A stretch of DNA of 64,000 nt from Trypanosoma brucei (lineage: Eukaryota): positions 64,001-128,000 of the forward strand of contig CP000069.1 of assembly GCA_000002445.1 (NCBI GenBank), given 5' to 3'. Both the position numbers and the translations under genes were made by a program. The notes under the pieces were generated by a model. It saw only the letters and a list, made by a program, of their open reading frames with translations. It searched no databases and was not told where the DNA came from. This document shows positions 21,831 through 58,457 of the stretch, one piece after another. The first letter of the stretch is position 1. The number at the start of each line of letters is the position of its first letter.

Positions 21831-24800
21831 ATGTCACTGCTACACTTGTTGCCTTTGCTACTCATGTGGATGCCACCTGTGTGCGCGGATGACAGTGCTG
21901 TGACGGTAAAAGTGCTATCCATGATGTATAATCCGGATTATACAGATAATGAAATTAACGCCCTGAATGCCGGTTTTGACGCATCACTGAGTGCCCACAG
22001 CTGGAAGACGGGCTCTAATGCGACAATATCTGTCATCCGTCCCCCATCACCCAATGCGACAATCGAGGACATATTTCAGCAGGGAATGAATCAAAGTGAA
22101 GACAAGTTATTAGTTGTATTCGGTTCCCTGGGTACTGATCACGTCTCGTGGGTCCGTGATAAACTAAACGAAAATGATCTTGTTGGCCTCGCTCCCGTTG
22201 CGTACTCCAGTGAGGTCCGTGGTTGGAACCCTCACCTTTATTTCATAAGTGTCGAACCCAATGCTGAACTCCTCGCCCTCATTCGTTATGCTGTTGTTTA
22301 CCTCCGTGTCCCACGAATAGGTATGATGCACGTGAAGAGCAGCACCGCCAGTATGGGACCGTATGAGTTTGCTGTGCAGATATTGGAAATGATGGGTCGC
22401 GAGCTGTGCGGAATGTTCGTTGTGAAGGAGAGTGAGAATCAAAATATCTCTGAGGATGATTTGAACGTCAGGTGGAGACAATTTGTTGCTACGCGCCCAC
22501 AGGCTATATTGTTGTTTTCATCCCTGGTGGATGGCAGCATCACGTGGTTCATCAAGAAGGTAGCACAGGACAACCGCACTGCCAATGCGTATCTTCTTTC
22601 TACTTCACTACAGCAGGGTCCTCTTATCAACATGTGGCGTGAGGCATTGGCGTTAGCTAATCGTACATTTACTCCTGGACAGCTAATCACAACTGGAACA
22701 GTGCCGCTCGCTAACGATACTCGGTTCTCACTGATTCGGCACTTCCAGCGTGATGTGAACAACTACCTGAAGACAAAAAGTGACTGGAAGGGCTTTGCGA
22801 AACCCGATCACTACCTTGAGGACGACAACGCAGGTGAGATGATGGTGTATGGGTGGCTTGCGGGAGAAGTTCTCTTCCAGGCTCTGAACAACGCTCCACA
22901 ACTGACGAACCGTACGTCATTCAGGGAATCTCTGTACAAGCAGCGTCGCTACGTGATTGATGACCTTGTGGTTGGTGACTTTGGTGGTGAGTGCGATGAG
23001 GCCGTTGCATTACAGGGTGCCATGTGTGAATGCAATCAAGGTGGCAACTTGGTATATATGAAGAGTATAGTGAATGGCTTCCGACCAGCGCCTTTGAGGG
23101 AAGGGTTCCTGACGTGGGGTGTATCAGAGTGCTCGAGTGCCAATGTGCAAGTAAGCGCGCCATTGAGTGGCCTGTTTTTGCTTCTCGCAGACAATGAAGT
23201 TGCATTACGTGCGAGCAGGAAGTGGTTCCTTGGTGCCGAAGCTCATAGTAAGAAGGTGGATGATATTGACAATAGAATATTTTTCCATCCCCTAACAGTA
23301 TCTTCAGAGAATGTGACGCAATCCCTTGAGCAAGTACGGGATAACAGGGATGTATCTGCAGTATTTGGTATCATGCCTGGAGGGCTTCTGGATCGAAAAG
23401 ATTTAATGTTCATCAGTCCTATGGCACTTGGTCCCCGAATGAACTGGTTTAGGAGAAACGTGATACACATACTACCACTTCTTGCGCAGCAACTTTATGT
23501 GCTTGCTGTGTATCTCTCCAACACTTCTTCCAGGGGAGTAAATGCATTCATACGTAGTGCCCACGCCATGAAGGTGGAGGATGCACTACACAAGTCATTG
23601 GACACGTTTGGTGTGCCGCTTGATTCCAGCAAGACACTTGGTGATGGTGACCCGATAGCGTCATATCTCTCGGGTGATGGAGATGTGTTTACTATTGGAC
23701 TCACTCTCACTGACGTTGCTGTGGTTGCGCGGCACCTTCAGACCCACCGCAGGGCACGTGTATTCATTCCATTCAATGACCTTGCAATGTACTACGATGA
23801 GTTTGTGGTTGCGTTTAATGCGAGTAAAGAGTCTATTGCTAGCTCAGAGCGGCTCCTATTCGCGACGAGTTTTCCACACTGGGCGGAGAAGGACACGAAA
23901 TCAGATGTGGTTGCGAGTTTCCATCGCATTGTGAATGAATCGCATTGGGATCCACTAACGTTCTTAGGTTTTGTTACCACTCGGCTGCTTCAAGTGATTC
24001 TCCCGAATATGAAGAAAGTGAATGCAGAGCTGCTGGCAGACCGCATTTACACGGAGTCCAACATCAAAGTGGATGACATGCGATTTGGACCCTTCAGTGA
24101 TGTGGAATGTGTTTCTGGTACGAGTGTTTCGGCAAATGAGTGTGCCTCAAACTTTGGAGCCACAAACATTTCTGTATGGTCGATGGCGCGTGTGCTGAAT
24201 TCAAGTGTGCCCATATTGCAACGCGGCATGACACCGTCTATGGATTATGCTATTTTGCAGGAGGGTCAACTCACACGGTCACAGATAGCCGGAATAATAG
24301 CCGGGTGCGTAGTCGGATTGATATTGTTTATTGTCCTTGGTGTGCTCCTACGCATCACCCTGCGGAATGCTCGTGATAACAATCTTGCGCCCAAGGAACA
24401 AACTGACCCCGTGACACTAATATTTACTGACATTGAGAGCAGCACTGCGTTGTGGGCTGCACACCCTGAGCTGATGCCTGATGCCGTTGCGACACATCAC
24501 TATTTGATTCGTTCACTGATTGGGAGGTATAAGTGCTACGAAGTCAAAACTGTTGGGGATTCGTTCATGATAGCGAGTAAGAGTCCTTTCGCTGCCGTCC
24601 AACTCGCACAGGAACTACAGCTGCGTTTCTTGCATCATGACTGGGGAACAAATGCACTTGATGAGTCCTACTGGGAGTTCGAGCAGCAGCGTGCGGAGGA
24701 GGACGAGAAGTACACACCGCCAACTGCACGGTTGGATCCTGAAGTGTACAGTCGTTTGTGGAATGGCCTGCGTGTACGTGTTGGAATCCACACCGGGTTG

Positions 24801-25469
24801 TGCGACATCCGACACGATGAAGTGACGAAGGGATATGACTACTATGGGCGGACTCCAAACATGGCAGCAAGGACAGAGAGTGTAGCAAATGGTGGTCAGG
24901 TGCTGATGACGCATGAGGTTTACCTGTCACTGTCAGCTGAGGAGCGTGAGCAAATTGATGTCACTGCACTTGGTGATGTTGCACTTCGCGGCGTGAATGA
25001 TCCTGTGGAAATGTACCAGTTGAATGCCGTGCCTGGCCGCAACTTTGCTGCATTACGGCTGGATCGCGAATTCTTTGATGAAGACGAGGATGGCACGACA
25101 ACCTCCACAAGCGACCACAGTTCTTCACGTGCCGAGCTGAGTGAATCAGCACAATCGATATTGAACTCACTGCAGTCTGTTTTCCGAACTTTTAAAGCAG
25201 CGCAACGGGGGAATCTTCTGGCGTCGCTTTGTGAGCGTTGGCGTGTGCCTCTTCCCCGTGAAGCCGCATTCGAGTGGGATGACGCCTACTGTGAGGAAGT
25301 GGTGCGTCGCATTGCAGTTAAGGTTGGGCGTGTCGCTGACCGTAGCGCTCAAAGTGGAAGCAGTGAAGCTTCTGTGAGTACTGAAGAGGGCTCAATCATA
25401 ATTGTTCCATTCGTTGGTTCACATTTCAGGGAAGGCCACTTTGGGTGTCCGCTTCCGTCGTTACATTAG
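21831..25469 (+). CDS. GRESAG4: Receptor-type adenylate cyclase of the GRESAG4/ESAG4 family, copy 2, intact.
   Basis: The ORF is listed from 21684, but that codon is GTG. The first in-frame ATG is at 21705. The ATG at 21831 begins 'MSLLHLLPLLLMWMPPVCADD', a typical signal peptide. The TM region is 'IAGIIAGCVVGLILFIVLGVLL'. The catalytic motifs match copy 1. The C-terminus is '...VPFVGSHFREGHFGCPLPSLH'. Confidence 0.9.
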   Translation: MSLLHLLPLLLMWMPPVCADDSAVTVKVLSMMYNPDYTDNEINALNAGFDASLSAHSWKTGSNATISVIRPPSPNATIEDIFQQGMNQSEDKLLVVFGSLGTDHVSWVRDKLNENDLVGLAPVAYSSEVRGWNPHLYFISVEPNAELLALIRYAVVYLRVPRIGMMHVKSSTASMGPYEFAVQILEMMGRELCGMFVVKESENQNISEDDLNVRWRQFVATRPQAILLFSSLVDGSITWFIKKVAQDNRTANAYLLSTSLQQGPLINMWREALALANRTFTPGQLITTGTVPLANDTRFSLIRHFQRDVNNYLKTKSDWKGFAKPDHYLEDDNAGEMMVYGWLAGEVLFQALNNAPQLTNRTSFRESLYKQRRYVIDDLVVGDFGGECDEAVALQGAMCECNQGGNLVYMKSIVNGFRPAPLREGFLTWGVSECSSANVQVSAPLSGLFLLLADNEVALRASRKWFLGAEAHSKKVDDIDNRIFFHPLTVSSENVTQSLEQVRDNRDVSAVFGIMPGGLLDRKDLMFISPMALGPRMNWFRRNVIHILPLLAQQLYVLAVYLSNTSSRGVNAFIRSAHAMKVEDALHKSLDTFGVPLDSSKTLGDGDPIASYLSGDGDVFTIGLTLTDVAVVARHLQTHRRARVFIPFNDLAMYYDEFVVAFNASKESIASSERLLFATSFPHWAEKDTKSDVVASFHRIVNESHWDPLTFLGFVTTRLLQVILPNMKKVNAELLADRIYTESNIKVDDMRFGPFSDVECVSGTSVSANECASNFGATNISVWSMARVLNSSVPILQRGMTPSMDYAILQEGQLTRSQIAGIIAGCVVGLILFIVLGVLLRITLRNARDNNLAPKEQTDPVTLIFTDIESSTALWAAHPELMPDAVATHHYLIRSLIGRYKCYEVKTVGDSFMIASKSPFAAVQLAQELQLRFLHHDWGTNALDESYWEFEQQRAEEDEKYTPPTARLDPEVYSRLWNGLRVRVGIHTGLCDIRHDEVTKGYDYYGRTPNMAARTESVANGGQVLMTHEVYLSLSAEEREQIDVTALGDVALRGVNDPVEMYQLNAVPGRNFAALRLDREFFDEDEDGTTTSTSDHSSSRAELSESAQSILNSLQSVFRTFKAAQRGNLLASLCERWRVPLPREAAFEWDDAYCEEVVRRIAVKVGRVADRSAQSGSSEASVSTEEGSIIIVPFVGSHFREGHFGCPLPSLH

Positions 25470-28400
25470 TGGTAGTGTTGCACGTCATAAAGCGTACAAA
25501 TATCTTAGTTTTACTCGGCGGAAAAGTTAATTAGCATACCGATTGTAGTAGTTGTTAGTGAATTTTAACGTAGTCTCGGTAGGGTTTGTCTTTTGTATCT
25601 ATTTTTATCTTTTGCCATCTATTTATTATTACATTTTTTACATTCTATTTTTGGTGGCTGCTGCCTCTGCATTAAAGCACATACTAATCTTAAGAGGGAA
25701 CATGCCCTCTGTTAGATTACACGTGCGTTGTCTTTCAAGACACTGAATTAACACATGCATGTGTTTTGCCGTGCCAGCGCCGGTTGGTTTCTTACTGTTC
25801 CAAATCCGACCCTTATGGAAGACAGGACGGCTCAACATTTCTTCTAATTTAACCAAAACGTTTTTGTTCTGTGAGTAATCACAAAACGGGATTAGCTATG
25901 TACTTTCCCTAAGGGCTCTCTTTTTTATTTGTGTCCTTGCCATTTGAGGCTTTAAGAAAAGTAAGGTGAAACATTTCTTTTTCAACACGTCTGTCCTTAA
26001 GCGTGCGAGTGCATGACTATTTTATTTTTTTAAATTCCACCTCTCACGCCCAATCCCGCAACCTTTTGGGTACAAAACTGTGTTTCCGTGTGTGTCTGTG
26101 TCACGTTTTTCTTTTTGAATCCACTTAATGCTAGCGGTGTCTTTAAATATTTTTTCATAATGAGTGTTATGTTGCATGTGTGTTTGTATGTGTTGGGTGT
26201 TATGTGGGCTGTTGTATCTCTCTCTTCGGATATACAACCCTTATCACCCTCTGCATTGCTGATGTTATATGTTGTTTCACCAGTTGCATGCTTTCTTTCC
26301 CTTCACTCATTTGTGTTGCCGTAAGGATTTAAGGTATGTGATTGCCTCCATTCCCTCCAGAGTGTGATGTCGATGCATGAGCTTAGTTATGTACTGAAAC
26401 CCGCGTTGCCTCGCAGTATAACAAAGTTCCCCCACCGTCACAGTTATTGCAGCTTATACTAATTATTGTATTGTGAGGGAGTTTTGTAACACGTTCACTC
26501 TGTTAATATTGCTGAGCCTATAATATCCTTCTGTTATTTACAACACTGTTTGGACACTCGAGGGGAGTGCAGAAATGCCGCTCCTTTATAGGGGCAAACC
26601 TCATTTATCCGTATTTTGTGGTAATTCAAGACTGAACCCTTGACATTTTAACTGTGCGATGAGGAGCTACGGCGAGTTGTGGCGGGAGGGAGCGTCTACG
26701 TCGCTGCAGTGTGTAACCTCAACTGAGCATTTGGCATACCTGTTACATGCTTCCCTTTACATCATGTGTGTTTGCGTGCATGGGCTCTGATTGTTACTTG
26801 CGCATATCTGCCGCCCTCACTTGGGGCTTTTCCCCCCATGCAGGAGTGTACGCACTGGCAGCCGCTTTGGAATATCAAAAATACTGCTACGTGCTGAAGA
26901 TATTATTTGGGAAGGGAACAAATGGAGGGAAACACTGTCGACCTTCAGGGGGAAAGGATAAACTCACCTGAATCGCAGCGGAACTCGTGCGGCTGCAGGC
27001 ATCCAACCTTTTTCCCTCAAGGACAATTGTTATCCCTGAGCGGGTTGTTTTATTAATTTTCCAGCCCTGTATGGCCGGAGTGCGTGCGGTCGCGATGTTT
27101 ATGTAACTCCTTTTGTTACATCACTTTCCTTCTTTTGTAAACCCCCGTAGTCGCCGGACGCCTCGTGCCGCATGCGGGCCCGATTAATTTTTTGGTTTGG
27201 GAATGAGATTGGAGGCACAAACTCTGATGAGGTCCACTGGCTGATCGCTGCTGCGTTGCTTAGATGCGTTTTTATCATTTCTTACTTCTTTCCAACGCTA
27301 CGTGGAGAAGGTGTGGTGACGGTGGCAGCAACCATTGGAAGTGCGAAAAAGAGGGCTCAATCATTTCAAAGTGGAAAGGGGCCCATTACCCGGAATTGAA
27401 ACTCGTCTGATCGCGAACGGCGTTTGGGTTGCGACCAGGAAATGAAATTTGTGTTACGGTCCAAATACGAAACTTGTTGGGTGGACCCAAGGAAAGAAAT
27501 AAAATGGATAAATACATGCTCTCTGCTGCATGAGACTCGGAATATGAGGAAAATGGTGCGAATGGATGTGGAGGGTGTGTCTAACCGGATGAGTGAGTGA
27601 CGACGCAACAACACGAAGATGAATGAAGGAAAAGGGAGGAGTGACAATGCATCCCAAAAGGCAGATGATTGATGTCATAAGAGGGGACCAAGTGTTTCCA
27701 CATGATTGCGGCGTCTGCAAGTAAAGTAGGGTACAAAGGAGAAAAAAAAAGAGAAAGCGGAACTGGATGAGATTCGGTTCTTCCGTCGCGCATGTTCTTA
27801 CGCCCTTCTTCCACTGCATGTGCTATGCGACATTCGTGCCCAAGGGGAAACTTTTCCTGTCTGGAAAGCGCCTTTAAGAAGTATATGAGAGGAACAGCCA
27901 GCCAGGCAGCCACACAAAAGGCGAAGGGCACAACAGAAATTATTAAGAGCCGAGACGCATTAGCCGAGGTAGAGGCTGGCGGAAACAAAACAACAAACAA
28001 GCGACTGCGGCACTGAAATAAGAAACAATCCAAACTCTTGCCCCACATCACACTTAAATACTTCCTTGCAGGAAAGAAGCAGCAACGCACATGAAATACA
28101 TATACGTGTTTGTTTGTTTGTGTGTGTGTGCTAATGTGCCATTGATCCTGTTCTTTCTTTCATTGGGGAATGACGAGAGCGGTTGCGGTGAGCTTCCTTG
28201 TGAGTGGGATAAGTTAGCAGCAACTTGCGGGGTTGCACGGATATTTATAACTCACCAACAGCCTGCCCGAGTTAAGGTGATAAAATAATACTCATTTTCT
28301 TACATACCCCATGCCGAAAAAAAAAATGGTGAGGAAACGATAAGCAGACTGCTCTCGTAAATTGAACAACAGTGGACCCGTTTGCTGAAAAAGAAATGGT

Positions 28401-31345
28401 AAATCAATATGTTATGTTAAGGATTTTAGTTACGGCAAGGAATTGCTGAAAGCGTGTGCTTCACCTGCCCCACACCCTTTCGCAACTTCTGGGCATAACC
28501 GTCCCGCCCGAAGAAATGCCGTCTGCGGGGTTGTCTGTCGATGCAACGTCGCCCCAGCTGACCACGATATTTCCCTCCAGCAATGTTTTGTTCACGAGGC
28601 GCGTTCCACTTGCCGAAACATCGAAATGTGTATTTCATTCTTTTCATGACGTGCTTGGCCGTGGCGTGTTACCAACGCATACGTAAAGCATTTGGGAGCG
28701 GGTTTCCTTCAAGGGTTTGTAATTTCAAGTCTACTGCTCTCGCCTCCACCTGCGAAACACAAAAATGTGGTTGTGCCCACTGGTCCTCCTGGGGCTCATA
28801 GCTTCCCACTAACCCTAAACGGTATTGCTTCCCAATCTTTCATTGAGGTGCCTGCGAATAATTTGGATGGTGTTGGTAAATAACTCGGTGAATTGACATA
28901 CTCGCTGTTAAGAAATATATTAAGCCACTGTTGTTTTCTCTTCATGGAATGCGATGAAAGGTGAGTCGAATCAGTTTCCTCCAATAATCATGTATTGAGC
29001 TTTAAAGGTCGTCGGCGCACCATCTTCAAAAAGAGATAATGTTGTTGGAATAGAGAATTTCCTCGTACGTCTGCCGTGTACATCATGCGGGATATTATGT
29101 TCTTCAACTGTTTTCTCGTTTTTGTTTTTTCCATCGAAGAGGCCTTCATGAGTTTTCCTACTCTCATTTTTCTATGGAAGACCAAGTGGCAACATATTTT
29201 TCTCTTGTGATAAATGTGAACCCATATGAAATTGTATTCTGCGAAGAGTTTGCTCTTCCCCACCATGGCACTGTATTGTACCATATGCTCCCTTATCATT
29301 ACACTCCAACTCCTTGATGACTTTCTGTAATACACTTTATGCGAATGTTATAAGTTCGCACATGTTTTTAGCGATGCGGTGCGGCACATTTTCGTTAAAC
29401 CACTTCTGTGTCTCTTTCCGGGGCCTGAGTATAATCGTGTGTAGGATGTCCTGAACCATATTCATGACCCATTGAAAGATGGATTGGTTCCACAAGTTTT
29501 CCACTCTTCGTTTGGCAACCGGAGACATGCGCAAATATACGCTACAAGTTCCACCTGAAAGAAAGAAACGGAGCCTTTGAGTCAAAGATGAATGCTGCAG
29601 CTTTATTGCAAACTGCGCCCAAATAACGGGACACGTGCTCTAATGAAGCCATGGTTTCATAATTATCATGGTTATTTATCAGCTTTGGCCGTGTGATAAA
29701 ACATCTACTCGTGACTTGGTTTCCCCTTCATCACTGTAAAGCTGGCACTACCCATCCCATGATGAGTCTCCAAAATAAATGCATCTACTTTGGAAACAGT
29801 CAATTTCGGTTATTGTTCCCAATCTTCCTACGCTTCGGGGCTTTACGCGTAATTTGCTACATTTCATCATATCGCCGTCGAGACTGGATGTTAGGTCTCT
29901 CTCCCTAACCCAATGCAGTGATAACCTAGTCGCATCTATCTGTTGTACCGGAAAGTTCTGCTGCTGCTGAGTCTCCGAAGTCACTTTAATTTAATGAGCA
30001 AATAACAAAATGCTGAGCCTCTGGAATGGAGACACGTGTCCCGCTACTTTCCTCGTGGGCTGTGAAATCATCTACGAGAAAGCTGCCCATTCATCAAATA
30101 TCTTTACATTAGTGCTGTTAAATTTCCTGAACCGTTTCATACGTCAGCCCGCAACTCGAGATGGCGAGCGGTGTTGCGAGGAAATCCCTTGGTGTTTACA
30201 TGCTTTCACATTTCTGCTAAAATGCGGGATTCCAAATCGTTCTCTATTGCGACTACTGCTGTTGCGTGAAGGTGAAAGTTCTCCCCTTTTTGTTGAAGGC
30301 GCCGTCATTCCGTAAGGTTTTAGTGTCTTTTTGACAAATTGACTGCTGAGTGCCGTTATTCTTTCCCACACACTCAAAAACTTTTTGATATCCCCCAACT
30401 GCGATAACCGCGTGCCTCACACTGCCCTGCACGGATCAGTATTGAAAGTTATTGTGAGAGCTCCCTAATCCACAATGATGGCATCCTTGTCATGAAGATG
30501 TGCGATAAGATTTTCCTTCCGCAGTAAAGCTATATCCCTTTCCACCAACTGGTAGTAATCCAAACCAAATGCATGACTGCTCGATTTCTTACGTTGTCCA
30601 GTGAATCGCATTTTGGATGGATTTCCCATTTCTGCATTGGCTGGGTTTGTTTTACTGGAGATTCCGCGGCTTTTCTCTGTAGAACTGAAAGATGCATATG
30701 AACTGGCGTTGCTCTGGCCGCCATCATTTACAATAAAGTTCCTGTATGCTGCGTTGTAATGTTTTTTGCGAATTGCATACTCACAATAAAGAGAAGACAG
30801 GGCCTAACCTATTCTAACTCTAAATTGGGCTTTCTCGAGAAATCGCAGGACCTTCTCGGTATCGGAGCCACATGTTCTCATGTTGGCTGCGTCCAAATGC
30901 ATTTTGCGATGTGATTTGTCTCTGAAACCCACAGCACAGTAACCGGATCATGACTCAGAGGTTTTACTATAATGATCATGACGTTTACCAGTGTCTTTGT
31001 TGGCTGGAGAGATTTAGAGTACGTTCCTTTATTTATTGTTTTCATGGGATCTAAAACCACATCCAATTGCCCTCTTTCTATTCCGTAACCCACGCACTTG
31101 AGGGTTTCGGATTTTTATATTCATGGGTATGGATTCCAATACTCTCTCGGAACTCAGCTTTCATTGTTTCCGTGGCCAAATCCCACCTTTCGGCTGCTAA
31201 AGTATTTTCCTTTCCTTGGCATAAAATGTAGAACCATAATAATTTAACTTTCCACAGCTATAGCGTCAAACTCTACTAACCAGGAGAATGGATTTTTTTT
31301 CTCTCTCAAATACGGTTGGTAAAAAGCATCGGGTTGTACATCCTT
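24363..31345. repeat. Left arm of a large inverted duplication, about 7 kb. It begins inside the GRESAG4 copy 2 catalytic domain and runs about 5.9 kb past the stop codon.
   Basis: I derived this from the sequence and the ORF track. Small ORFs in 25552-31093 reappear on the opposite strand in 51724-57268, with coordinate sums of about 82815-82820 and 0-2 aa differences each. Direct comparison of 31181-31345 with the reverse complement of 51475-51640 matches. The match is lost beyond 31345/51475. Confidence 0.9.
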
Positions 31346-32774
31346 CCTCCCATTTACATACTTCCTTCTGTGAAGCCAACTGTATTATTGTGCGGTGCCG
31401 TTTGTAAATGGGCAATCGTTTTCCAATGATTCATCTCAGGTATTGATGATTCGTTTATCTCTTCTAATCTATCTATATACGAATGCACATGATCCAACTC
31501 TTCTCTCAATTGAAAAATTCCCCTGCCTTATTCTACAATTCTCAACATTAATTCCTATCAACTGAGTTTGAATGCGCCAGCGCCTGTCACCCATTCGTGC
31601 CGTATCATTTCATACTTCTGGAATAGAACTGATTTATTTTACTCAAGCACCATTCATTTATTTCAAAACGTCACTCGGGCTTCTTCAAAAGACCGTAAAA
31701 AATACAGCGCTTTGGGGCATATTGAAGGACACCAATGAATTCCGTAGGTAAATGAAGTTCACTTCCTTATTTTCAAAGAATACTTGAAACTCCCCATTTT
31801 CCAATTTCAACATACCGTCTGCGTGCGACGTGAAGTTTCTTAGCGACGAACCATTTCCAATTGAAAATGGGGTTTGTTCCCTCCTTTATACAAAAGCTTT
31901 TGTTTATGTCAAGGCCTTTGTCCATTCTACATCCAGAATGGTCTGTGGAGTTGCCGTTGACATATCTGTGAAGCTTACATTCGCAAGAAAAATTTAAGTC
32001 TACTTCCAAAACTGACCTCTAATGCCCTTTTCCACTCAGAAACGTTCGGGGGAGATGATGTATAAAACTTTCGGTATGGTTGGAGCACTCCTTTCACGGG
32101 TACTTTCCTAAAAAAAGACAAAATCAACGTCGAGATTAATAAAACCCTTTCCTCTAAGGCGTTGTTCCAAATCCCACGCCTCATACAGATGCGCTTCGCC
32201 CCCAGAGGAGGCGCGTATTTTTCACTTATTTCCCACGTGTAGAGGGGTGCTGTATATATGTGTGAAACGGTGAAGCGAGGCGATGGCAAAGCCTTCACAG
32301 CCGACTGCTCGGTCTCCTGAAAAGTGAAAGCTATGACAAAATGCTGAGAAACTGTGTTGTTTTTTTCGTTGCCCACGTGAGCATCGGTCTACGTCCTCTA
32401 CGTGACGTGAGGAAAAAAAAGGCCGTAACTTTATACGGCCGTCGTGCGTGAGGCCAGTTGGTGAAAGGAATGGCTGGTCCTCACGGGCGGTATCCTGGAC
32501 TAATACTTAATTTCTTTATTGATAAAGTTTTTATGGTAACTTCTGCAGCCGCCATTCGAACGGCATGGTGGCACAGTAGCCTTTTCTCCCCCTCAAACTC
32601 TGGGGGGCCTGCCATTCACACCACCCCGCGTGCATGCTGCGTATTATTGTGGATGTTCAACGATGTAAAGCACTTTCGCAGTAGCTGCAACGAGGCTCTG
32701 TGAGTTACAGAACTCGGTAATACATGATTTCCTTTTCCACATTCAACAAATGTGACGGCACTTTAAGCAAGAGT

Positions 32775-34639
32775 TTAATCTCCCCGTTGCATTTGTACCC
32801 TATTCGCCTCCAGAGCCTTGCTAACGGCGGGTTTGATGCAGGCTCCGCTCAAGGTGACAGATGATAGCCGCGACGATTCCAGCAATACCTCAAAACCTTT
32901 CACGGCTCTGCAATCATAGAGGTCCAATATTGTGAGCGACGTTGCCCGGCCAAACGGTGTGATTTCCATTAGCGTACTGCAAGAAGAAAGTCTCAGCTCC
33001 TTCACTTTTCCATGTGTGCCAAGCTCCTGAAGGTCGTCGATGGAAACAGGCGTATTGTTCAAGTCCAGGATGCTCAGCTTAGGGAGTTTACAAAGGGTAT
33101 CGAACCCTCCTCTTATGTCTTGGCATCCATAAAGGTTCACTTTCTCCAGCGTATCGAGTGCTGAAAGTGGTTTTATATCCGTCAGATTCCCCCAGTATGA
33201 AAGTGATAACACAATCAGGGAGTAGCATCTGTTGAGGGCGCATATGCGCCCTCACTTCCAACACTCGTATAACTCAACTCAGCAACGTGAAGCTGTGGTA
33301 GTGCACCAAGCGCGTAAAAACTACTCTTGATGTTTCTGCAGCCGTCAAGGTTCAGCTCTTCACGCATTTTGATTTCAGGGAGTAAGGAGATATCTGTAAG
33401 GCACGTGCAGTAGGAAAGATTAAGCGCTACAAGCGAGTGCGAGGTGTTTATTTCTGTAAACGATTGTGTGTTCCCTGCTGCTCTACTCAGATTCAAAGTT
33501 TTCAGCCGCGGTAGTCTCCCAATAGAGCCGAACCCCTTGGTAATGCTAGTACAATTTCTGAGGCGCAAGTACTCAAGCGTCTCAGCACTGGAAAGCGATG
33601 CTACGTTAATACGAGTGCCACCGCAATCAACAGTGGGACTCTAAAGTGACTTGGGGCTCTAAGTTGCACTGAAGGTGCCCCCATCCATGATGAGCTGCCT
33701 CAGTTCCAAAACCCTCAACGCATTCATTGCTAATTCTCTTGCCTTGAAGCCCAAGAACTGGAAGGTGTGGCAGTGATCCGAGAACCCCTATTCCTTGTCT
33801 TATGGCTCCGCAGCGAATAAGGTTTAATTATTCGAGTGCCGCAACGCTTGAAGGGGAGCACGCACAAGTTAGATTCTCGCAACAACTGAGGTCCAACTTC
33901 TTCCGGTAGCAACACGCATGCAGTTCCCTTGTGGGGCGGTCGGTAGCAGACGAGCGGCTTAAGCCCAACATTTTGAGGTTTGGAAACCGCTGAACTCCAC
34001 TGACGCTTACAGGCTTTGTGCAATTAGAGAGTGCAAGCCTTTTCAATGCAGCGGCATCGCGGGTACAGCAACCACCAGCGTTGTCACCGTATTCGTCGTT
34101 TAGGGACGGCTTTGCGAATGGTAGAAGCCCTTCCAGGGAGGACACATTCAACGATGGGTAGGAGCAGCATCCAGCATGCAATTCTTTAAGAAGATACAGT
34201 TCAGCAAGTTGTTGTACGCCAAAATTCGTATCCTCTACAGTTAAGCATGGTCTCTTGAGTGCTTCACACTTTCTGAGCATTGGTAGCGAGTGTAAGCCAG
34301 TTGCCACCTGCCTATGTCCAGTTTGGTTGGCACTTTGTGATGCATCCGATACGATGCAATCGACACCGCAGTAAACCACACCTTTCTTTTTGTTTTTTTG
34401 TGCCGTTGAAACGGCGCGACCCACCCCCGAGTGACTGCACTGCGCTCCATTTGGCACAAGATTTCCAACAAATTCCGGCATGAATCCAGAGTTTGTTCCA
34501 CAGTTTCGTCACTACCACTGTTCCACTCGCCATCGCTAATCGGGACTTGATCGTCTCCGGCGGACCGCCGGCCCCACAAAGACACAAGGCACTTCACTGA
34601 GGCGCTGCGGTGACACCTGTTCACATCACGCCGTGTCAT
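32775..34639 (-). pseudogene. Leucine-rich repeat protein (LRRP, ESAG8-like) pseudogene. It is fragmented into at least four minus-strand ORF pieces by frameshifts.
   Basis: The ORFs 32775-33212, 33215-33568, 33828-34481 and 34241-34639 show a cysteine-containing LRR periodicity. Examples are 'LNLSYCTCLTDISLLPEIKMREELNLDGCRNIKS', 'LRNCTSITKGFGSIGRLPRLKTLNLSRAAG' and 'LDLNNTPVSIDDLQELGTHGKVKELRLSSCSTL'. The pieces lie in different frames, so the gene is not intact. Confidence 0.7.
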
Positions 34640-40600: not shown

Positions 40601-41271
40601 AAAAGCGTTCCAGCACACTTCAACCGCTTCACATCGACACGAAACACTATCTTGTTGGCTGCACGGCAAGTAAACGTCATCTGTGGTAGTTGGAATCACA
40701 CGGATGCGGGTTTTGATAGGGTGACCAATTTCGCTTTCATCCACTTCGCCATTCAGTATAACGACATTCATTATTCTCGAAAGCTTCGGCATGAGACAGT
40801 ACATCTATTGCTGAAGGGAGTTACGTACCTCGCAGCGGCCTATTGGTAGAGCGCACATCTTCCCCTAGGGTGCGGGAGAATGTTATATCAACGGCATGTG
40901 ACATTTCAGCAGGAAAAAAGCGCAACAGTTTCTTTCTATTTTCTCACATCAGTAAGAAAATGGTGAGAGCACCCGGTCTGTTTATCGCAAACACTATGTG
41001 TAAGGCGGCGTGGTGGTTGGCACGCAAAGTTCCATCACCAACAGCCTGGCGCTCCCGAAAGCTGTTAGGCTGCGTCTACCCTCTTCGTTCATCAGTAGAT
41101 GCTATAACTAACATGCGTTTAAAAAGTACGCGCGGGGTTCCCTTCCTTTTCGTTCACACCCCAACCGAACGCCCCGGCGCCTATTCACTTCCCGCACCGC
41201 GCGTTTGCCGCAGGAATGCCTTTCAATCGCCCGAGAGTTTGTGATTGTTAACCTCCATGCCATGGTCAATT

Positions 41272-41284
41272 CCCCCCCCCCCCC
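41272..41284. repeat. C13 homopolymer inside a GC-rich island (about 41250-42100) within an otherwise AT-rich ORF-free stretch.
   Basis: Read directly from the sequence: 'tcaattccccccccccccaggatc'. Confidence 0.8.
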
Positions 41285-47909: not shown

Positions 47910-49301
47910 ATGCTCGGTTTTTATTCAGTACCTGAATTTGTCGTTTACGTCACCTTCATCTTTTTTGGGATGTCGGTGATGAATGTGACGAATGCCATCT
48001 ATTCGATACCATTTTTCTTTAAGGAGTACTACAAGTTTGCTCAGGGGGACGCTGATGTACAGCCGAAGGACGAAGGCTTTTGGAAGCACATGTTCACGTA
48101 CTACAATGTCGTTGTGTACACTATGCAGGTGCTTTTGGAGGCCTTCATGCTTACGCCACTGGGAAGAAGGTTTCCAATACGCTGGCGGCTCACCTTTGGT
48201 CTGGCGGTTCCTATCGTGGAGATCATTGTGATTTTAGTGATCCCTGTGGTCCGCACAAGCGAGGACGCGGCAAAGGCGGCTATGATGATGATCGCCTTCA
48301 TTGGTGGTGTTTCGAAGACATTGTGTGACTCTGGTAATGCCGCACTTGTAGGGCCGTTTCCCACCAAGTTCTACGGTGCCGTCGTTTGGGGTCTCGGTAT
48401 ATCCGGGCTTCTCACCTCATTCATGTCTATTATCATCAAGGTATCTATGGACGATAGCTTTTCCAGCTTGCTTACACAGTCGCGGATATACTTTGGACTA
48501 ATTATGCTTCTTCAGGTGATCGCGTGCATTCTTCTAGTTTTACTGAGGAAGAACCCCTACGCCATGAGGTATGCTGCAGAGTTAAGGTTTGACGCAAAGA
48601 AGAGTGGTACAAAGGACTCCAACGGTTTAGTCGACGTAGCCGATGCGAGAGGAACTGGTCCTGCAGACGAGGAATGCGAACGTGAGGCGGATGAAAGGTC
48701 TGACATAAATGTGATGAATGCCACGACAGATCCAGATACAATGAGAGATACCGACCAGTTGGAAAATATGACTAACGCAAAACAAATGTTGGACGCGAGT
48801 GTTATGGTTGTGGCAAAGCGTATTTGGCCCATGCTTGTTTCCTGTTTCTTTGTGTTCTTTGCAACACTTCTCGTCTTCCCTGGTGTGTTCTTTGCTGTCA
48901 AGACGGATGTTCCCAGTGGGTGGTATTTCACCATCGTCGCTGCGATGTACAACTTGGGTGACTTCCTATCTCGCCTTGTCCTTCAGTTCAAGCGGTTGCA
49001 CCCTTCGCCACGTGGCGTTGTGATCGGAACCTTTTCGCGTTTGTTGGTTATTCCACTGCTTGCACTTTGCGTGTACGATGTTATTAGTGGCCCGTGGGTC
49101 CCTTATGTTCTTTGCCTTATTTGGGGCCTTACGAATGGCTACTTTGGCGGCATGTCGATGATTTATGGACCGCGTACCGGATCCCTTACAACAGCGGGCC
49201 AGAGGTCCCTTGCTGCCATTTGCATTAATTTGGCCCTTCTTCTTGGCCTCTTCGGTGGTGCCATGTCTGCCATGGCGGTTATAAAAGCTCTTCCGCATTA
49301 A
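47910..49301 (+). CDS. Equilibrative nucleoside/nucleobase transporter (ENT family, TbNT/AT-like), 463 aa, intact.
   Basis: The track lists the ORF from 47877, but that codon is GTG. The first ATG, at 47910, gives an 'MLGF...' N-terminus. There are about 11 hydrophobic segments. A long hydrophilic loop sits between TM6 and TM7: 'RKNPYAMRYAAELRFDAKKSGTKDS...DQLENMTNAKQ'. The motifs 'FIFFGMSVMNVTNAIYSIPFFFKEYYKF' and 'MYNLGDFLSR' match my memory of trypanosomatid ENT transporters. I could not assign it to a named paralogue. Confidence 0.75.
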   Translation: MLGFYSVPEFVVYVTFIFFGMSVMNVTNAIYSIPFFFKEYYKFAQGDADVQPKDEGFWKHMFTYYNVVVYTMQVLLEAFMLTPLGRRFPIRWRLTFGLAVPIVEIIVILVIPVVRTSEDAAKAAMMMIAFIGGVSKTLCDSGNAALVGPFPTKFYGAVVWGLGISGLLTSFMSIIIKVSMDDSFSSLLTQSRIYFGLIMLLQVIACILLVLLRKNPYAMRYAAELRFDAKKSGTKDSNGLVDVADARGTGPADEECEREADERSDINVMNATTDPDTMRDTDQLENMTNAKQMLDASVMVVAKRIWPMLVSCFFVFFATLLVFPGVFFAVKTDVPSGWYFTIVAAMYNLGDFLSRLVLQFKRLHPSPRGVVIGTFSRLLVIPLLALCVYDVISGPWVPYVLCLIWGLTNGYFGGMSMIYGPRTGSLTTAGQRSLAAICINLALLLGLFGGAMSAMAVIKALPH

Positions 49302-51195: not shown

Positions 51196-51474
51196 GGCAA
51201 AATGAGGAAACTGGAATAACTTAATATCTTATGGAAATGAAATGGGAGACCTTGTAGCTGAGGTAGGTGGATTATTAATTGAAGTTAATGAAGGTGAAAG
51301 GAATGTGAGGGAAGTACTACCAACTACCCTTGTGGAAACAAATAAATGTAATGCAGCTATCACAGGGATTCGCAGAACTGTGTGCAATGACATTAGGGCA
51401 GTAAAGAATGCAAATGACTGCAAACGCGGCCGCCGAAGATTTGGCACAACCTGTACACGATCTTAGTGGAAAAG

Positions 51475-54400
51475 GATGTACAACCCGATGCTTTTTACCA
51501 ACCGTATTTGAGAGAGAAAAAAAATCCATTCTCCTGGTTAGTAGAGTTTGACGCTATAGCTGTGGAAAGTTAAATTATTATGGTTCTACATTTTATGCCA
51601 AGGAAAGGAAAATACTTTAGCAGCCGAAAGGTGGGATTTGGCCACGGAAAAAATGGAACTTGAGTGCCGAGAGAGTATTGGAATCCATACCCATGAATAA
51701 AAAAATCCGAAACCCTCAAGTGCGTGGGTTACGGAATAGAAAGAGGGCAATTGGATGTGGTTTTAGATCCCATGAAAACAATAAATAAAGGAACGTACTC
51801 TAAATCTCTCCAGCCAACAAAGACACTGGTAAACGTCATGATCATTATAGTAAAACCTCTGAGTCATGATCCGGTTACTGTGCTGTGGGCTTCAGAGACA
51901 AATCACATCGCAAAATGCATTTGGACGCAGCCAACATGAGAACATGTGGCTCCGATACCGAGAAGGTCCTGCGATTTCTCGAGAAAGCCCAATTTAGAGT
52001 TAGAATAGGTTAGGCCCTGTCTTCTCTTTATTGTGAGTATGCAATTCGCAAAAAACATTACAACGCAGCATACAGGAACTTTATTGTAAATGATGGCGGC
52101 CAGAGCAACGCCAGTTCATATGCATCTTTCAGTTCTACAGAGAAAAGCCGCGGAATCTCCAGTAAAACAAACCCAGCCAATGCAGAAATGGGAAATCCAT
52201 CCAAAATGCGATTCACTGGACAACGTAAGAAATCGAGTGGTCATGCATTTGGTTTGGATTACTACCAGTTGGTGGAAAGGGATATAGCTTTACTGCGGAA
52301 GGAAAATCTTATCGCACATCTTCATGACAAGGATGCCATCATTGTGGATTAGGGAGCTCTCACAATAACTTTCAATACTGATCCGTACAGGGCAGTGTGA
52401 GGCACGCGGTTATCGCAGTTGGGGGATATCAAAAAGTTTTTGAGTCTGTGGGAAGGAATAACGGCACTCAGCAGTCAATTTGTCAAAAAGACACTAAAAC
52501 CTTACGGAATGACGGCGCCTTCAACAAAAAGGGGAGAACTTTCACCTTCACGCAACAGCAGTAGTCGCAATAGAGAACGATTTGGAATCCCGCATTTTAG
52601 CAGAAATGTGAAAGCATGTAAACACCAAGGAATTTCCTCGCAACACCGCTCGCCATCTCGAGTTGCGGGCTGACGTATGAAACGGTTCAGGAAGTTTAAC
52701 AGCACTAATGTAAAGATGTTTGATGAATGGGCAGCTTTCTCGTAGTTGATTTCACAGCCCACGAGGAAAGTAGCGGGACACGTCTTCATTCCAGAGGCTC
52801 AGCATTTTGTTATTTGCTCATCAAATTAAAGTGACTTCGGAGACTCAGCAGCAGCAGAACTTTCCGGTACAACAGATAGATGCGACTAGGTTATCACTGC
52901 ATTGGGTTAGAGAGAGAGACCTAACATCCAGTCTCGACGGCGATATGATGAAATGTAGCAAATTACGCGTAAAGCCCCGAAGCGTAGGAAGATTGGGAAC
53001 AATAACCGAAATTGACTGTTTCCAAAGTAGATGCATTTATTTTGGAGACTCATCATGGGATGGGTAGTGCCAGCTTTACAGTGATGAAGGGGAAGCCAAG
53101 TCACGAGTAGATGTTTTATCACACGGCCAAAGCTGATAAATAACCATGATAATTATGAAACCATGGCTTCATTAGAGCACGTGTCCCGTTATTTGGGCGC
53201 AGTTTGCAATAAAGCTGCAGCATTCATCTTTGACTCAAAGGCTCCGTTTCTTTCTTTCAGGTGGAACTTGTAGCGTATATTTGCGCATGTCTCCGGTTGC
53301 CAAACGAAGAATGGAAAACTTGTGGAACCAATCCATCTTTCAATGGGTCATGAATATGGTTCAGGATATCCTACACACGATTATACTCAGGCCCCGGAAA
53401 GAGACACAGAAGTGGCTTAACGAAAATGTGCCGCACCGCATCGCTAAAAACATGTGCGAACTTATAACATTCGCATAAAGTGTATTACAGAAAGTCATCA
53501 AGGAGTTGGAGTGTAATGATAAGGGAGCATATGGTACAATACAGTGCCATGGTGGGGAAGAGAAAACTCTTCGCAGAATACAATTTCATATGGGTTCACA
53601 TTTATCACAAGAGAAAAATATGTTGCCACTTGGTCTTCCATAGAAAAATGAGAGTAGGAAAACTCATGAAGGCCTCTTCGATGGAAAAAACAAAAACGAG
53701 AAAACAGTTGAAGAACATAATATCCCGCATGATGTACACGGCAGACGTACGAGGAAATTCTCTATTCCAACAACATTATCTCTTTTTGAAGGTGGTGCGC
53801 CGACGACCTTTAAAGCTCAATACATGATTATTGGAGGAAACTGATTCGACTCACCTTTCATCGCATTCCATGAAGAGAAAACAACAGTGGCTTAATATAT
53901 TTCTTAACAGCGAGTATGTCAATTCACCGAGTTATTTACCAACACCATCCAAATTATTCGCAGGCACCTCAATGAAAGATTGGGAAGCAATACCGTTTAG
54001 GGTTAGTGGGAAGTTATGAGCCCCAGGAGGACCAGTGGGCGCAACCACATTTTTGTGTTTCGCAGGTGGAGGCGAGAGCAGTAGACTTGAAATTACAAAC
54101 CCTTGAAGGAAACCCGCTCCCAAATGCTTTACGTATGCGTTGGTAACACGCCACGGCCAAGCACGTCATGAAAAGAATGAAATACACATTTCGATGTTTC
54201 GGCAAGTGGAACGCGCCTCGTGAACAAAACATTGCTGGAGGGAAATATCGTGGTCAGCTGGGGCGACGTTGCATCGACAGACAACCCCGCAGACGGCATT
54301 TCTTCGGGTGGGCCGGTTATGCCCAGAAGTTGCGAAAGGGTGTGGGGCAGGTGAAGCACACGCTTTCAGCAATTCCTTGCCGTAACTAAAATCCTTAACA

Positions 54401-57400
54401 TAACATATTGATTTACCATTTCTTTTTCAGCAAACGGGTCCACTGTTGTTCAATTTACGAGAGCAGTCTGCTTATCGTTTCCTCACCATTTTTTTTTTCG
54501 GCATGGGGTATGTAAGAAAATGAGTATTATTTTATCACCTTAACTCGGGCAGGCTGTTGGTGAGTTATAAATATCCGTGCAACCCCGCAAGTTGCTGCTA
54601 ACTTATCCCACTCACAAGGAAGCTCACCGCAACCGCTCTCGTCATTCCCCAATGAAAGAAAGAACAGGATCAATGGCACATTAGCACACACACACAAACA
54701 AACAAACACGTATATGTATTTCATGTGCGTTGCTGCTTCTTTCCTGCAAGGAAGTATTTAAGTGTGATGTGGGGCAAGAGTTTGGATTGTTTCTTATTTC
54801 AGTGCCGCAGTCGCTTGTTTGTTGTTTTGTTTCCGCCAGCGTTTACCTCGGCTAATGCGTCTCGGCTCTTAATAATTTCTGTTGTGCCCTTCGCCTTTTG
54901 TGTGGCTGCCTGGCTGGCTGTTCCTCTCATATACTTCTTAAAGGCGCTTTCCAGACAGGAAAAGTTTCCCCTTGGGCACGAATGTCGCATAGCACATGCA
55001 GTGGAAGAAGGGCGTAAGAACATGCGCGACGGAAGAACCGAATCTCATCCAGTTCCGCTTTCTCTTTTTTTTTCTCCTTTGTACCCTACTTTACTTGCAA
55101 ACGCCGCAATCATGTGGAAACACTTGGTCCCCTCTTATGACATCAATCATCTGCCTTTTGGGATGCATTGTCACTCCTCCCTTTTCCTTCATTCATCTTC
55201 GTGTTGTTGCGTCGTCACTCACTCATCCGGTTAGACACACCCTCCACATCCATTCGCACCATTTTCCTCATATTCCGAGTCTCATGCAGCAGAGAGCATG
55301 TATTTATCCATTTTATTTCTTTCCTTGGGTCCACCCAACAGGTTTCGTGTTTGGACCGTAACACAAATTTCATTTCCTGGTCGCAACCCAAACGCCGTTC
55401 GCGATCAGACGAGTTTCAATTCCGGGTAATGGGCCCCTTTCCACTTTGAAATGATTGAACCCTCTTTTTCGCACTTCCAATGGTTGCTGCCACCGTCACC
55501 ACACCTTCTCCACGTAGCGTTGGAAAGAAGTAAGGAATAATAAAAACGCATCTGAGCAACGCAGCAGCGATCAGCCAGTGGACCTCATCAGAGTTTGTGC
55601 CTCCAATCTCATTCCCAAACCAAAAAATTAATCGGGCCCGCATGCGGCACGAGGCGTCCGGCGACTACGGGGGTTTACAAAAGAAGGAAAGTGATGTAAC
55701 AAAAGGAGTTACATAAACATCGCGACCGCACGCACTCCGGCCATACAGGGCTGGAAAATTAATAAAACAACCCGCTCAGGGATAACAATTGTCCTTGAGG
55801 GAAAAAGGTTGGATGCCTGCAGCCGCACGAGTTCCGCTGCGATTCAGGTGAGTTTATCCTTTCCCCCTGAAGGTCGACAGTGTTTCCCTCCATTTGTTCC
55901 CTTCCCAAATAATATCTTCAGCACGTAGCAGTATTTTTGATATTCCAAAGCGGCTGCCAGTGCGTACACTCCTGCATGGGGGGAAAAGCCCCAAGTGAGG
56001 GCGGCAGATATGCGCAAGTAACAATCAGAGCCCATGCACGCAAACACACATGATGTAAAGGGAAACATGTAACAGGTATGCCAAATGCTCAGTTGAGGTT
56101 ACACACTGCAGCGACGTAGACGCTCCCTCCCGCCACAACTCGCCGTAGCTCCTCATCGCACAGTTAAAATGTCAAGGGTTCAGTCTTGAATTACCACAAA
56201 ATACGGATAAATGAGGTTTGCCCCTATAAAGGAGCGGCATTTCTGCACTCCCCTCGAGTGTCCAAACAGTGTTGTAAATAACAGAAGGATATTATAGGCT
56301 CAGCAATATTAACAGAGTGAACGTGTTACAAAACTCCCTCACAATAAAATAATTAGTATAAGCTGCAATAACTGCGACGGTGAGGGAACTTTGTTATACT
56401 GCGAGGCAACGCGGGTTTCAGTACATAACTAAGCTCATGCATCGACATCACACTCTGGAGGGAATGGAGGCAATCACATACCTTAAATCCTTACGGCAAC
56501 ACAAATGAGTGAAGGGAAAGAAAGCATGCAACTGGTGAAACAACATGTAACATCAGCAATGCAGAGGGTGATAAGGGTTGTATATCCGAAGAGAGAGATA
56601 CAACAGCCCACATAACACCCAACACATACAAACACACATGCAACATAACACTCATTATGAAAAAATATTTAAAGACACCGCTAGCATTAAGTGGATTCAA
56701 AAAGAAAAACGTGACGCAGACACACACGGAAACACAGTTTTGTACCCAAAAGGTTGCGGGATTGGGCGTGAGAGGTGGAATTTAAAAAAATAAAATAAAA
56801 TAGTCATGCACTCGCACGCTTAAGGACAGACGTGTTGAAAAAGAAATGTTTCACCTTATTTTTCTTAAAGCCTCAAATGGCAAGGACACAAATAAAAAAG
56901 AGAGCCCTTAGGGAAAGTACATAGCTAATCCCGTTTTGTGATTACTCACAGAACAAAAACGTTTTGGTTAAATTAGAAGAAATGTTGAGCCGTCCTGTCT
57001 TCCATAAGTGTCGGATTTGGAACAGTAAGAAACCAACCGGCGCTGACACGGCAAAACACATGCATGTGTTAATTCAGTGTCTTGAAAGACAACGCACGTG
57101 TAATCTAACAGAGGGCATGTTCCCTCTTAAGATTAGTATGTGCTTTAATGCAGAGGCAGCAGCCACCAAAAATAGAATGTAAAAAATGTAATAATAAATA
57201 GATGGCAAAAGATAAAAATAGATACAAAAGACAAACCCTACCGAGACTACGTTAAAATTCACTAACAACTACTACAATCGGTATGCTAATTAACTTTTCC
57301 GCCGAGTAAAACTAAGAGATTTGTACGCTTTATGACGTGCAACAGTACCACTAATGTAACGACGGAAGCGGACACCCAAAGTGGCCTTCTCTGAAATGTG

Positions 57401-58457
57401 AACCAACGAATGGAACAATTATGATTGAGCCCTCTTCAGTACTCACAGAAGCTTCACTGCTTCCACTTTGAGCGCTACGGTCAGCGACACGCCCAACCTT
57501 AACTGCAATGCGACGCACCACTTCCTCACAGTAGGCGTCATCCCACTCGAATGCGGCTTCACGGGGAAGAGGCACACGCCAACGCTCACAAAGCGACGCC
57601 AGAAGATTCCCCCGTTGCGCTGCTTTAAAAGTTCGGAAAACAGACTGCAGTGAGTTCAATATCGATTGTGCTGATTCACTCAGCTCGGCACGTGAAGAAC
57701 TGTGGTCGCTTGTGGAGGTTGTCGTGCCATCCTCGTCTTCATCAAAGAATTCGCGATCCAGCCGTAATGCAGCAAAGTTGCGGCCAGGCACGGCATTCAA
57801 CTGGTACATTTCCACAGGATCATTCACGCCACGAAGTGCAACATCACCAAGTGCAGTGACATCAATTTGCTCACGCTCCTCAGCTGACAGTGACATGTAA
57901 ACCTCATGCGTCATCAGCACCTGACCACCATTTGCTACACTCTCTGTCCTTTCTGCCATGTTTGGAGTCCGCCCATAGTAGTCATATCCCTTCGTCACTT
58001 CATCGTGTCGGATGTCGCACAACCCGGTGTGGATTCCAACACGTACACGCAGGCCATTCCACAAACGACTGTACACTTTGAGGTCCAACCGCGCAGTTGG
58101 CGGTGTGTACTTCTCGTCCTCCTCCGCACGCTGCTGCTCCAACTGCTGGTAAGAATCATCAATCGCATTTGTTCCCCAGTCATGATGCAAGAAACACAGC
58201 TGTAGTTCCTGTGCGAGTTGGACGGCAGCGAAAGGACTCTTACTCGCTATCATGAACGAATCCCCAACAGTTTTGACTTCGTAGCACTTATACCTCCCAA
58301 TCAGTGAACGAATCAAATAGTGATGTGTCGCAACGGCATCAGGCATCAGCTCAGGGTGTGCAGCCCACAACGCAGTGCTGCTCTCAATGTCAGTAAATAT
58401 TAGTGTCACGGGGTCAGTTTGTTCCTTGGGTGCAAGATTGTTATCACGGGCATTCCG
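51475..58457. repeat. Right arm of the inverted duplication, the reverse-complement copy of 24363-31345. It covers the 3' flank and the catalytic/C-terminal coding part of GRESAG4 copy 3.
   Basis: Same evidence as the left arm. The protein from 57351-58583 is near-identical to the copy 2 C-terminal 400 aa, including an identical 'FVGSHFREGHFGCPLPSLH' tail. Confidence 0.9.

Follow-up and report, generated by a model that had tools for sequence, protein, structure and literature searches.

The GRESAG4 genes of Trypanosoma brucei, which encode receptor adenylate cyclases, are known to undergo biased gene conversion within their arrays, and some of the conversion tracts run across the stop codon into the 3′ untranslated region (UTR) (Jackson 2007, PMC1855330). 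On a larger scale, adenylate cyclases and surface-protein genes are found in the segmental duplications reported between T. brucei subspecies, whose genomes are otherwise colinear (Jackson et al. 2010, PMC2854126), and seven large inverted repeats (IR1-IR7), none of them on chromosome 6, have been listed in the genome of strain TREU927 (Tschudi et al. 2012, PMC3447711). Here we analyzed a 64,000-nt stretch of T. brucei DNA (the window) in which two GRESAG4-type genes, cycA on the plus strand and cycR on the minus strand, face each other across a long inverted repeat that takes in the 3′ part of both. This repeat probably originated as a one-off inverted segmental duplication, by homology-initiated copying between the two facing paralogues.

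A repeat finder and a self-BLAST of the window detected one dominant inverted pair, 24363-31345 against 58457-51472, which in the BLAST search showed 98.93% identity over 6,989 aligned columns (E=0). In a global MAFFT alignment the arms, of 6,983 nt (left) and 6,986 nt (right), were 98.9% identical and differed by 69 substitutions (50 transitions and 19 transversions) and two indels, one of 5 nt at 26017/56798-56802 and one of 2 nt at 30032-30033. The three methods agree with a ~7-kb inverted duplication with ~99% identical arms, as had been proposed from a reading of the letters of the window (the original prediction); the coordinates given there were right to within 3 nt, with the right arm beginning at 51472 and not at 51475. 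A single molecule thus carries two long copies in reverse-complement orientation, a match that chance cannot account for; their centres are separated by 27.1 kb and their homology ends abruptly at both boundaries, and the window contains no N. The left arm (24363-31345, plus strand) comprises the juxtamembrane segment of cycA, the whole catalytic domain, the C-terminal tail and ~5.9 kb of 3′ flank, and the right arm (51472-58457, minus strand) is its reverse complement with the same content. Each arm can be divided into an outer part that bears homology to other cyclases (24363-25020 on the plus strand in the left arm), i.e., the catalytic-domain core, and a part (25021-31345, plus strand) with the C-terminal tail and the 3′ flank, which is common to the two arms only. 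No open reading frame (ORF) longer than 169 aa was present in the flank (25470-31345), and Pfam, Rfam and tRNA scans of it were without match. When stop-to-stop segments of at least 70 aa from the 5.9-kb flank and from 13 kb of unannotated spacer were compared with Pfam, only LRR, an ESAG1 fragment and cyclase ectodomain were found. The pair resembles IR1-IR7 in that it has kilobase arms of ~99% identity in the same genome. It differs from them in the length of its spacer (31346-51471; 20,126 nt), whole listed repeats covering 3.6-12 kb if IR2, for which the end coordinate as printed (100060) is clearly corrupted, is left aside, and in the 69 mismatches between its arms, compared with at most 14 (PMC3447711).

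The outer boundary of the left arm lies within cycA (21705-25469, plus strand), an intact gene of 1254 aa with Pfam matches PF25495, PF25493 and PF00211, which has the architecture of the GRESAG4 family, i.e., a periplasmic-binding-protein-like ectodomain, one transmembrane helix and a class III cyclase catalytic domain. Its last 369 codons are within the arm. The arms had been predicted to start inside the catalytic domain, but position 24363 corresponds to codon 893, just past the transmembrane helix and 11 codons ahead of the Pfam cyclase match, which starts at codon 904. In a sliding four-way alignment of the cyclases of the window (cycA, cycR, cyc1 at 8196-11909 and cyc4 from 62013 to beyond 64000, the last two on the minus strand), the arm start coincided with the point at which all four rise from 40-50% to at least 90% nucleotide identity, so that this edge of the tract lies in homology shared by the four paralogues. 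The core (~24400-25020) is at least 90% identical among all of them and, judging from this comparison, is conserved or homogenised across the cyclase family. The outer arm part accumulated 19 mismatches in 658 nt (2.9%), and within it a mosaic patch (24624-24741) showed 14 substitutions in 118 nt, with the right copy like cyc4 and the left copy like cyc1.

The right-hand gene, cycR (57351-60920, minus strand), has all the parts of a GRESAG4 gene, with a disrupted ectodomain. Upstream of the arm (~60920-58458) its ectodomain and transmembrane part are decayed, with at least five in-frame stops, two frameshifts and a deletion of ~27 codons, and downstream of that point (58457-57351) it consists of arm sequence that is a clean ORF and is 99% identical to cycA. 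The ectodomain of cycR, like its transmembrane helix, was 60-65% identical to GRESAG4 proteins from other chromosomes (60-63% for full-length TREU927 proteins and 65% for a DAL972 fragment) and ~30% identical to cycA and the chromosome 6 type; these 60-65% paralogues were the best matches in the protein database, where no intact orthologue of the ectodomain was found. The ectodomain and the 3′ part therefore have different closest relatives, and cycR is a phylogenetic chimera as well as a pseudogene. The C-terminal tail encoded by the arm was 75-76% identical to chromosome 6-type tails and 44-47% identical to those of the cycR-ectodomain lineage, and a 448-nt piece of the flank occurs at the same offset behind a chromosome 6 cyclase of DAL972 (T. 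b. gambiense). These affinities of tail and flank suggest that the arm sequence belongs by origin to the lineage of the left gene and is foreign to the right gene, where the outer join keeps the frame of a transmembrane helix characteristic of a different cyclase lineage. Recombination between the arms had been expected to swap the 3′ halves of two cyclase genes; as cycR is already a pseudogene upstream of the arm, such an exchange would have almost no coding consequence. The flank piece itself (26048-26495 of the window, 14324-14771 of the DAL972 sequence L002) is 98% identical in DAL972, where a cyclase with only 90% coding identity precedes it at a distance of ~580 nt, and it may be a conserved 3′-UTR element or a conversion tract. 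L002 was rejected as the orthologous locus, because it offers only a 90% paralogue and 448 nt of flank.

At the inner boundary a different picture was observed. The spacer holds, as predicted, an LRRP pseudogene (32778-34052, minus strand), with LRR matches at 32778-33640 and the gene broken into short ORFs, and an intact ENT nucleoside transporter (47910-49301, plus strand), whose 463 aa are exactly those of XP_845152.1 ("adenosine transporter 1, putative"). In addition, it carries an ESAG1-family relic (51212-51430, plus strand), which matches positions 8-82 of the 227 of the Pfam profile PF03238 (E=1e-23) and ends ~40 nt outside the inner edge of the right arm. A continuation of ESAG1 into the right arm was ruled out, since there was no match in any frame. 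At the left inner edge nothing recognisable is truncated; the possibility that LRRP was cut by the left arm was discarded, because its relic ends ~1.4 kb from the arm. No homology extends beyond the arm at the inner boundary, as would be found with homology at two ends, and for this reason one-ended copying with a non-homologous end is preferred. A retroposon-mediated origin was also rejected: no similarity to ingi or RIME was detected at any arm boundary, even with a word size of 11, the flanks of the boundaries gave no Pfam match to reverse transcriptase (RT) or endonuclease, and a search for dispersed repeats revealed none at any of the boundaries.

We infer from these features that the left arm is the source copy and the right arm the derived one. 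Three observations point in this direction: cycR is a chimera in which sequence with its nearest relatives in another lineage (60-65% identity, against ~30% to the cycA type) gives way to sequence 99% identical to cycA, the ESAG1 relic is truncated at the right inner edge with nothing cut at the left one, and the tail and the flank are of the chromosome 6 type. That one end of the tract lies in prior homology and the other does not argues for copying that was one-ended and initiated by homology. In the proposed mechanism, a break or a stalled fork would have occurred in, or 3′ of, the already diverged cycR, and the broken end would have invaded the conserved catalytic-domain sequence of cycA, 27-34 kb away. 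Then, ~7 kb comprising the catalytic domain, the C-terminal tail and the 3′ flank would have been copied, until copying ended at a non-homologous join that truncated the ESAG1-like relic. Such an event, either a long-tract ectopic gene conversion or break-induced replication, would have overwritten the 3′ end of a decaying cyclase and part of the ESAG1 relic, and its outcome would be the chimeric cycR pseudogene and two inverted 7-kb arms around a 20-kb unit. Subsequently, the arms would have drifted independently, to 0.8% in the part common to them alone, and the catalytic-domain part would additionally have traded short patches with other paralogues. The proposed event resembles the gene conversion described for GRESAG4 genes (PMC1855330) in the family involved, in the non-reciprocal transfer with a mosaic or chimeric product, and in a tract that runs from conserved coding sequence across the stop codon into the 3′ UTR and flank. 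Those events, however, are short tracts in direct tandem arrays, whereas here ~7 kb are shared by inverted partners of different lineages, 27-34 kb apart, with a non-homologous join at one end. Given this length, orientation, difference of lineage and non-homologous end, the event has more in common with break-induced replication or a segmental duplication than with a classical two-ended conversion.

The arms diverge from each other as expected after a single event with subsequent drift. Over the 6,325 arm-specific nt we counted 50 substitutions (0.79%), which follow a Poisson distribution (for bins of 253 nt, variance/mean 0.98), and no identical run exceeds 527 nt, compared with a simulated mean of 558 nt for the longest one (P=0.52). 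Hence, neither clustered differences nor an excess of long identical tracts, which would mark concerted evolution, was found in this part, and the arms appear to have diverged independently after one event. An independent view of the left locus was provided by a protein labelled Schistosoma mansoni, Smp_112590 (XP_018644553.1), which was the only one listed as 100% identical to cycA and actually differs from it by one residue. Its gene sits on a 17.4-kb contig (L001, NW_017386323.1) that is trypanosome DNA; L001 is colinear with 19404-35471 of the window at 99.59% identity and spans both left-arm junctions. At 67 of the 76 diagnostic columns it has the left-arm allele, and its identity to the right arm is 98.74%. 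Another such contig (L004, NW_017386306.1) is 100% identical to the window over 1,443 nt, which suggests one strain as the source of the window and the contaminant contigs alike, with L001 as the other haplotype of that strain. If so, the arm exists in three distinct versions, and a single diploid locus could accommodate only two. The arms, which differ by 0.8-1.0%, exceed the ~0.4% difference of the second haplotype of the left locus, and the duplication therefore appears to be older than the allelic split there; the prediction that it was recent needs to be qualified, and an especially recent origin is not supported. Coding sequences of T. b. brucei and T. b. gambiense are on average 99.2% identical (PMC2854126), and the duplication may be about as old as the radiation of the subspecies. 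In its gene content, it is similar to the segmental duplications described in that comparison, but those tabulated are tandem (direct) and this locus is not listed among them, and no flanking inverted repeats are described for the chromosome 10 inversions (55 and 110 kb) in the same paper. Within L001, a stretch that corresponds to 29257-29638 of the window is hypervariable, with 10 private and 3 right-arm-like changes in 380 nt (~3.4%, vs 0.4% elsewhere), which could reflect either conversion of a short tract by a copy not contained in the window or low sequence quality of the contig.

The arms may also coincide with zones where transcription converges. The maximum of the cumulative GC skew falls within the left arm, at ~28.2 kb, to which ~54.6 kb is the mirror position in the right arm, and by orientation cycA (plus) meets the LRRP pseudogene (minus), and ENT and the ESAG1 relic (plus) meet cycR (minus). 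On the basis of orientation and composition, opposite-strand clusters would meet within each arm at a putative convergent switch, placed at 27700-28700 in the left arm and at ~54100-55100 in the right one, where two polycistronic units would give overlapping transcription. In the spacer, the region 41000-42000 is a block of 58% GC, and a run of 13 C residues (41272-41284) lies exactly at the minimum of the cumulative skew, so that a divergent strand switch is predicted near 41.2 kb. G-tracts are a motif reported at divergent transcription start regions of trypanosomes. RNA genes and tRNAs were searched for at the strand switches and none was found. With such an arrangement the spacer looks like a self-contained divergent unit, the inversion of which would preserve the topology of transcription.

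Several findings place the window on chromosome 6. A near-identical GRESAG4 array (XP_845156-159) is on the same TREU927 chromosome, of 1,618,915 bp, as the ENT record XP_845152.1 and XP_845150.1, which exactly matches cyc1 over 8196-11831. To our knowledge, TbNT9 (Tb927.6.220) is the only ENT on that chromosome, and the transporter of the window is likely to be this gene; it was ruled out as the TbAT1 locus, since it has only 56% identity to TbAT1. Furthermore, the nearest relative of cycA in DAL972 adjoins the genes for the haptoglobin-haemoglobin receptor (HpHbR), which is Tb927.6.440 in the literature, and procyclin. The window thus appears to lie on chromosome 6, to the left of the HpHbR/procyclin region, and the arm pair, given that the published list of large inverted repeats has no entry for this chromosome, is uncatalogued.

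Two published loci on chromosome 6 that yield small interfering RNAs (siRNAs) match this arrangement. They are the convergent units (CTU) CTU18, at 88300-97500, and CTU19, at 115000-122000, which rank 4th and 5th of the 49 units, with 9,102 and 9,011 AGO1-bound reads respectively; their reads amount to 163-170% of wild type in dcl1-/- and to 0.3% in dcl2-/- cells (PMC3447711). They are the only pair of such units on chromosome 6 that is ~26 kb apart. The strand counts of the two fit a mirrored pairing (4954 vs 4712 and 4148 vs 4299; p=0.014 and 0.10), and the direct pairing of strands was rejected (p=1e-11 and 2e-9). For IR3, reads that map to more than one place were assigned at random (PMC3447711), and mirrored counts are expected if CTU18 and CTU19 are the inverted arms and their multi-mapping reads were treated in this way. 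Most probably, therefore, the arms correspond to these two DCL2-dependent loci, which would give the window an offset of ~63-65 kb. Through CTU18/19, siRNA production would be a further likeness to IR1-IR7, but the Dicer dependence of CTU18/19 differs from that of IR1-IR7 and is of the type of the DCL2-dependent convergent units, with reads increased in dcl1-/- and abolished in dcl2-/-; the head-to-head meeting of opposite-strand clusters predicted in each arm is also as in those units. Because of this Dicer profile, the siRNAs more likely derive from convergent transcription than from the repeat as such. Unlike other convergent units, these two would be copies of one another, a relationship that goes unremarked in PMC3447711, and the counts given for each locus are probably one pool that was split at random. 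Chromosome 6 has two other siRNA loci of unknown nature, DNK1 (5,111 reads) and DNK2 (4,248 reads), which are DCL1- and DCL2-dependent and whose coordinates are unlisted (PMC3447711, Additional file 5).

Some points weigh against the account given above, or against parts of it. No other strain or outgroup with the orthologous locus was retrieved, and the direction of copying rests on internal evidence; an earlier event with no connection to the copying could have shortened the ESAG1 relic. The strand switches are deduced from gene orientation and GC skew, and the assignment to CTU18/19 is based on chromosome, spacing, count symmetry and topology rather than on a direct match of coordinates, and a literature search turned up no paper from which the position of the window on the chromosome could be read. 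Finally, for the right-arm junctions (51471/51472 and 58457/58458) no confirmation was obtained from an independent assembly: exact-protein look-ups of contigs gave no match for ENT (with ATG or GTG start), cycA (with two starts), the cycR ORF, the proteins P0001 and P0037 or the 70-aa ORF across the right inner junction, in an index that apparently does not include TREU927. A further contig (L003, NW_017386571.1) is a paralogous array copy and says nothing about the right arm. Since long near-identical inverted repeats are a classic product of mis-assembly and TREU927 is heterozygous here (L001 being 0.4% from the window), the right arm might be a misplaced allelic haplotype or a chimeric join, with a single 7-kb copy per haploid genome. 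There is only a slim chance that this is the case, because the 69 substitutions and two indels between the arms are evenly spread, each arm runs into different unique sequence on both sides, and L001 is closer to the left arm region than to the right arm; if L004 indeed indicates the same strain, the three versions of the arm are too many for a diploid locus. Furthermore, an in-frame outer join to the transmembrane helix of another lineage would be rare for a random chimeric join, and two of the seven large inverted repeats, IR3 and IR4, were verified by polymerase chain reaction in YTat 1.1 (PMC3447711). The artefact that the original prediction had wished to see excluded is, in its simple forms of a fold-back or a collapse, unlikely, the differences, the unique flanks and the passage of L001 across the left junctions all being against it. 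The ongoing homogenisation by gene conversion suggested at the same time is not supported. Gene conversion is frequent in GRESAG4 genes, their 3′ UTRs included (PMC1855330), within the arms, the catalytic-domain part is pieced together from short tracts that also occur in other paralogues, and it has been speculated that large inverted repeats are kept identical by selection (Tschudi et al., PMC3447711); an ancient inverted duplication kept near-identical by continuing arm-to-arm conversion would be compatible with these facts. It is nevertheless unlikely: recent conversion tracts are absent from the 6.3 kb of the arm-specific part, where the differences are scattered as at random, the sharp edges beside a chimeric gene and a truncated relic point to a single copying event, and the left arm of L001 has gained private changes, with no runs of right-arm alleles except for one 3-site stretch in the hypervariable patch.

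The possibility that the repeat is kept for a function, i.e., as a flip-flop module that inverts the TbNT9 unit or as a hairpin whose read-through double-stranded RNA (dsRNA) feeds RNA interference, was also considered. The inverted repeat is long enough, with 7-kb arms at 99% identity, to be an ample substrate for homologous recombination, and the original prediction that such recombination would invert the spacer was correct as to this potential. No sign of inversion isomers was found, however, since both available versions of the left side (the window and L001) have the same orientation. The apparently self-contained spacer, with a topology that inversion would leave unchanged, the production of siRNAs by all seven published large inverted repeats (PMC3447711) and the probable identity of the arms with two of the strongest CTU sources of siRNA would fit a functional module. 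A hairpin transcript, on the other hand, would have to read through one convergent and one divergent switch, the response of CTU18/19 to the loss of either Dicer is like that of convergent units, the published inverted repeats retaining 38-108% in dcl1-/- cells, and the neutral Poisson drift of the arms shows no sign of selection for identity. Taken together, these data make a module of this kind very doubtful. A broader proposal is improbable too, namely that the arm pair is an eighth large inverted repeat, second to IR2 in arm length, in which the high siRNA output of CTU18/19 comes from the repeat itself, as inter-arm dsRNA or read-through hairpins, and the siRNAs or a recombination that flips the spacer regulate the cyclase or the transporter. 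A one-off copying event between cycA and cycR remains the explanation that we favor.

Viewed in this manner, the rearrangement is an ordinary one for the GRESAG4 family, and the new points are its absence from the catalogue of inverted repeats and its probable match to siRNA loci. It provides a clean and datable example of how this family of surface cyclases is reshuffled: the conserved catalytic domain would act as a portable patch of homology, through which one paralogue may overwrite the 3′ end and the flank of another, even when the partner is inverted and of a different lineage, and a transcription-termination zone would be duplicated along with it. The list of large inverted repeats published for the reference genome is thus incomplete, and a single duplicated sequence, its reads split at random, probably underlies two of the strongest siRNA loci among the convergent units. 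Because of this probable duplication, siRNA, RNA sequencing, chromatin immunoprecipitation and variant calls at ~88-122 kb of chromosome 6 should be treated as multi-mapping. There is also a consequence for databases, in that T. brucei chromosome 6 contigs are carried in the S. mansoni RefSeq as schistosome proteins. The assembly concerned (GCF_000237925.1) contains chromosome 6 DNA annotated under XP_018644553.1 (Smp_112590), XP_018644084.1 and XP_018644076.1, which touch 1-36850 of the window, and in a literature search no paper was found that reports T. brucei contamination of the S. mansoni assembly.

The other features of the window concern its cyclases and its left end. Although cycA is an intact ORF, no TREU927-labelled protein record exists for it, whereas its neighbours have records (XP_845150 and XP_845152), and the gene may be annotated as a pseudogene or be unannotated in the reference. 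The upstream region of cyc1 (12682-14254, minus strand) is 98.5% like that of a paralogous array cyclase (1-1573 of L003), which implies that 5′ flanks too are common to otherwise diverged cyclase paralogues. Together, the ESAG1 relic, the GRESAG4 genes and the LRRP (ESAG8-like) relics make the locus resemble a decayed gene set of the expression-site type. An ingi-like retroelement occupies 1002-5725 on the minus strand, with ORFs at 1002-2318 (zinc finger) and 2240-5725 (endonuclease, RT and RNase H). Beside it, positions 1-430 consist of a degenerate tandem array with periods of ~20, 29, 58 and 69 nt and the unit TGCAATTATACGCAATAATG...

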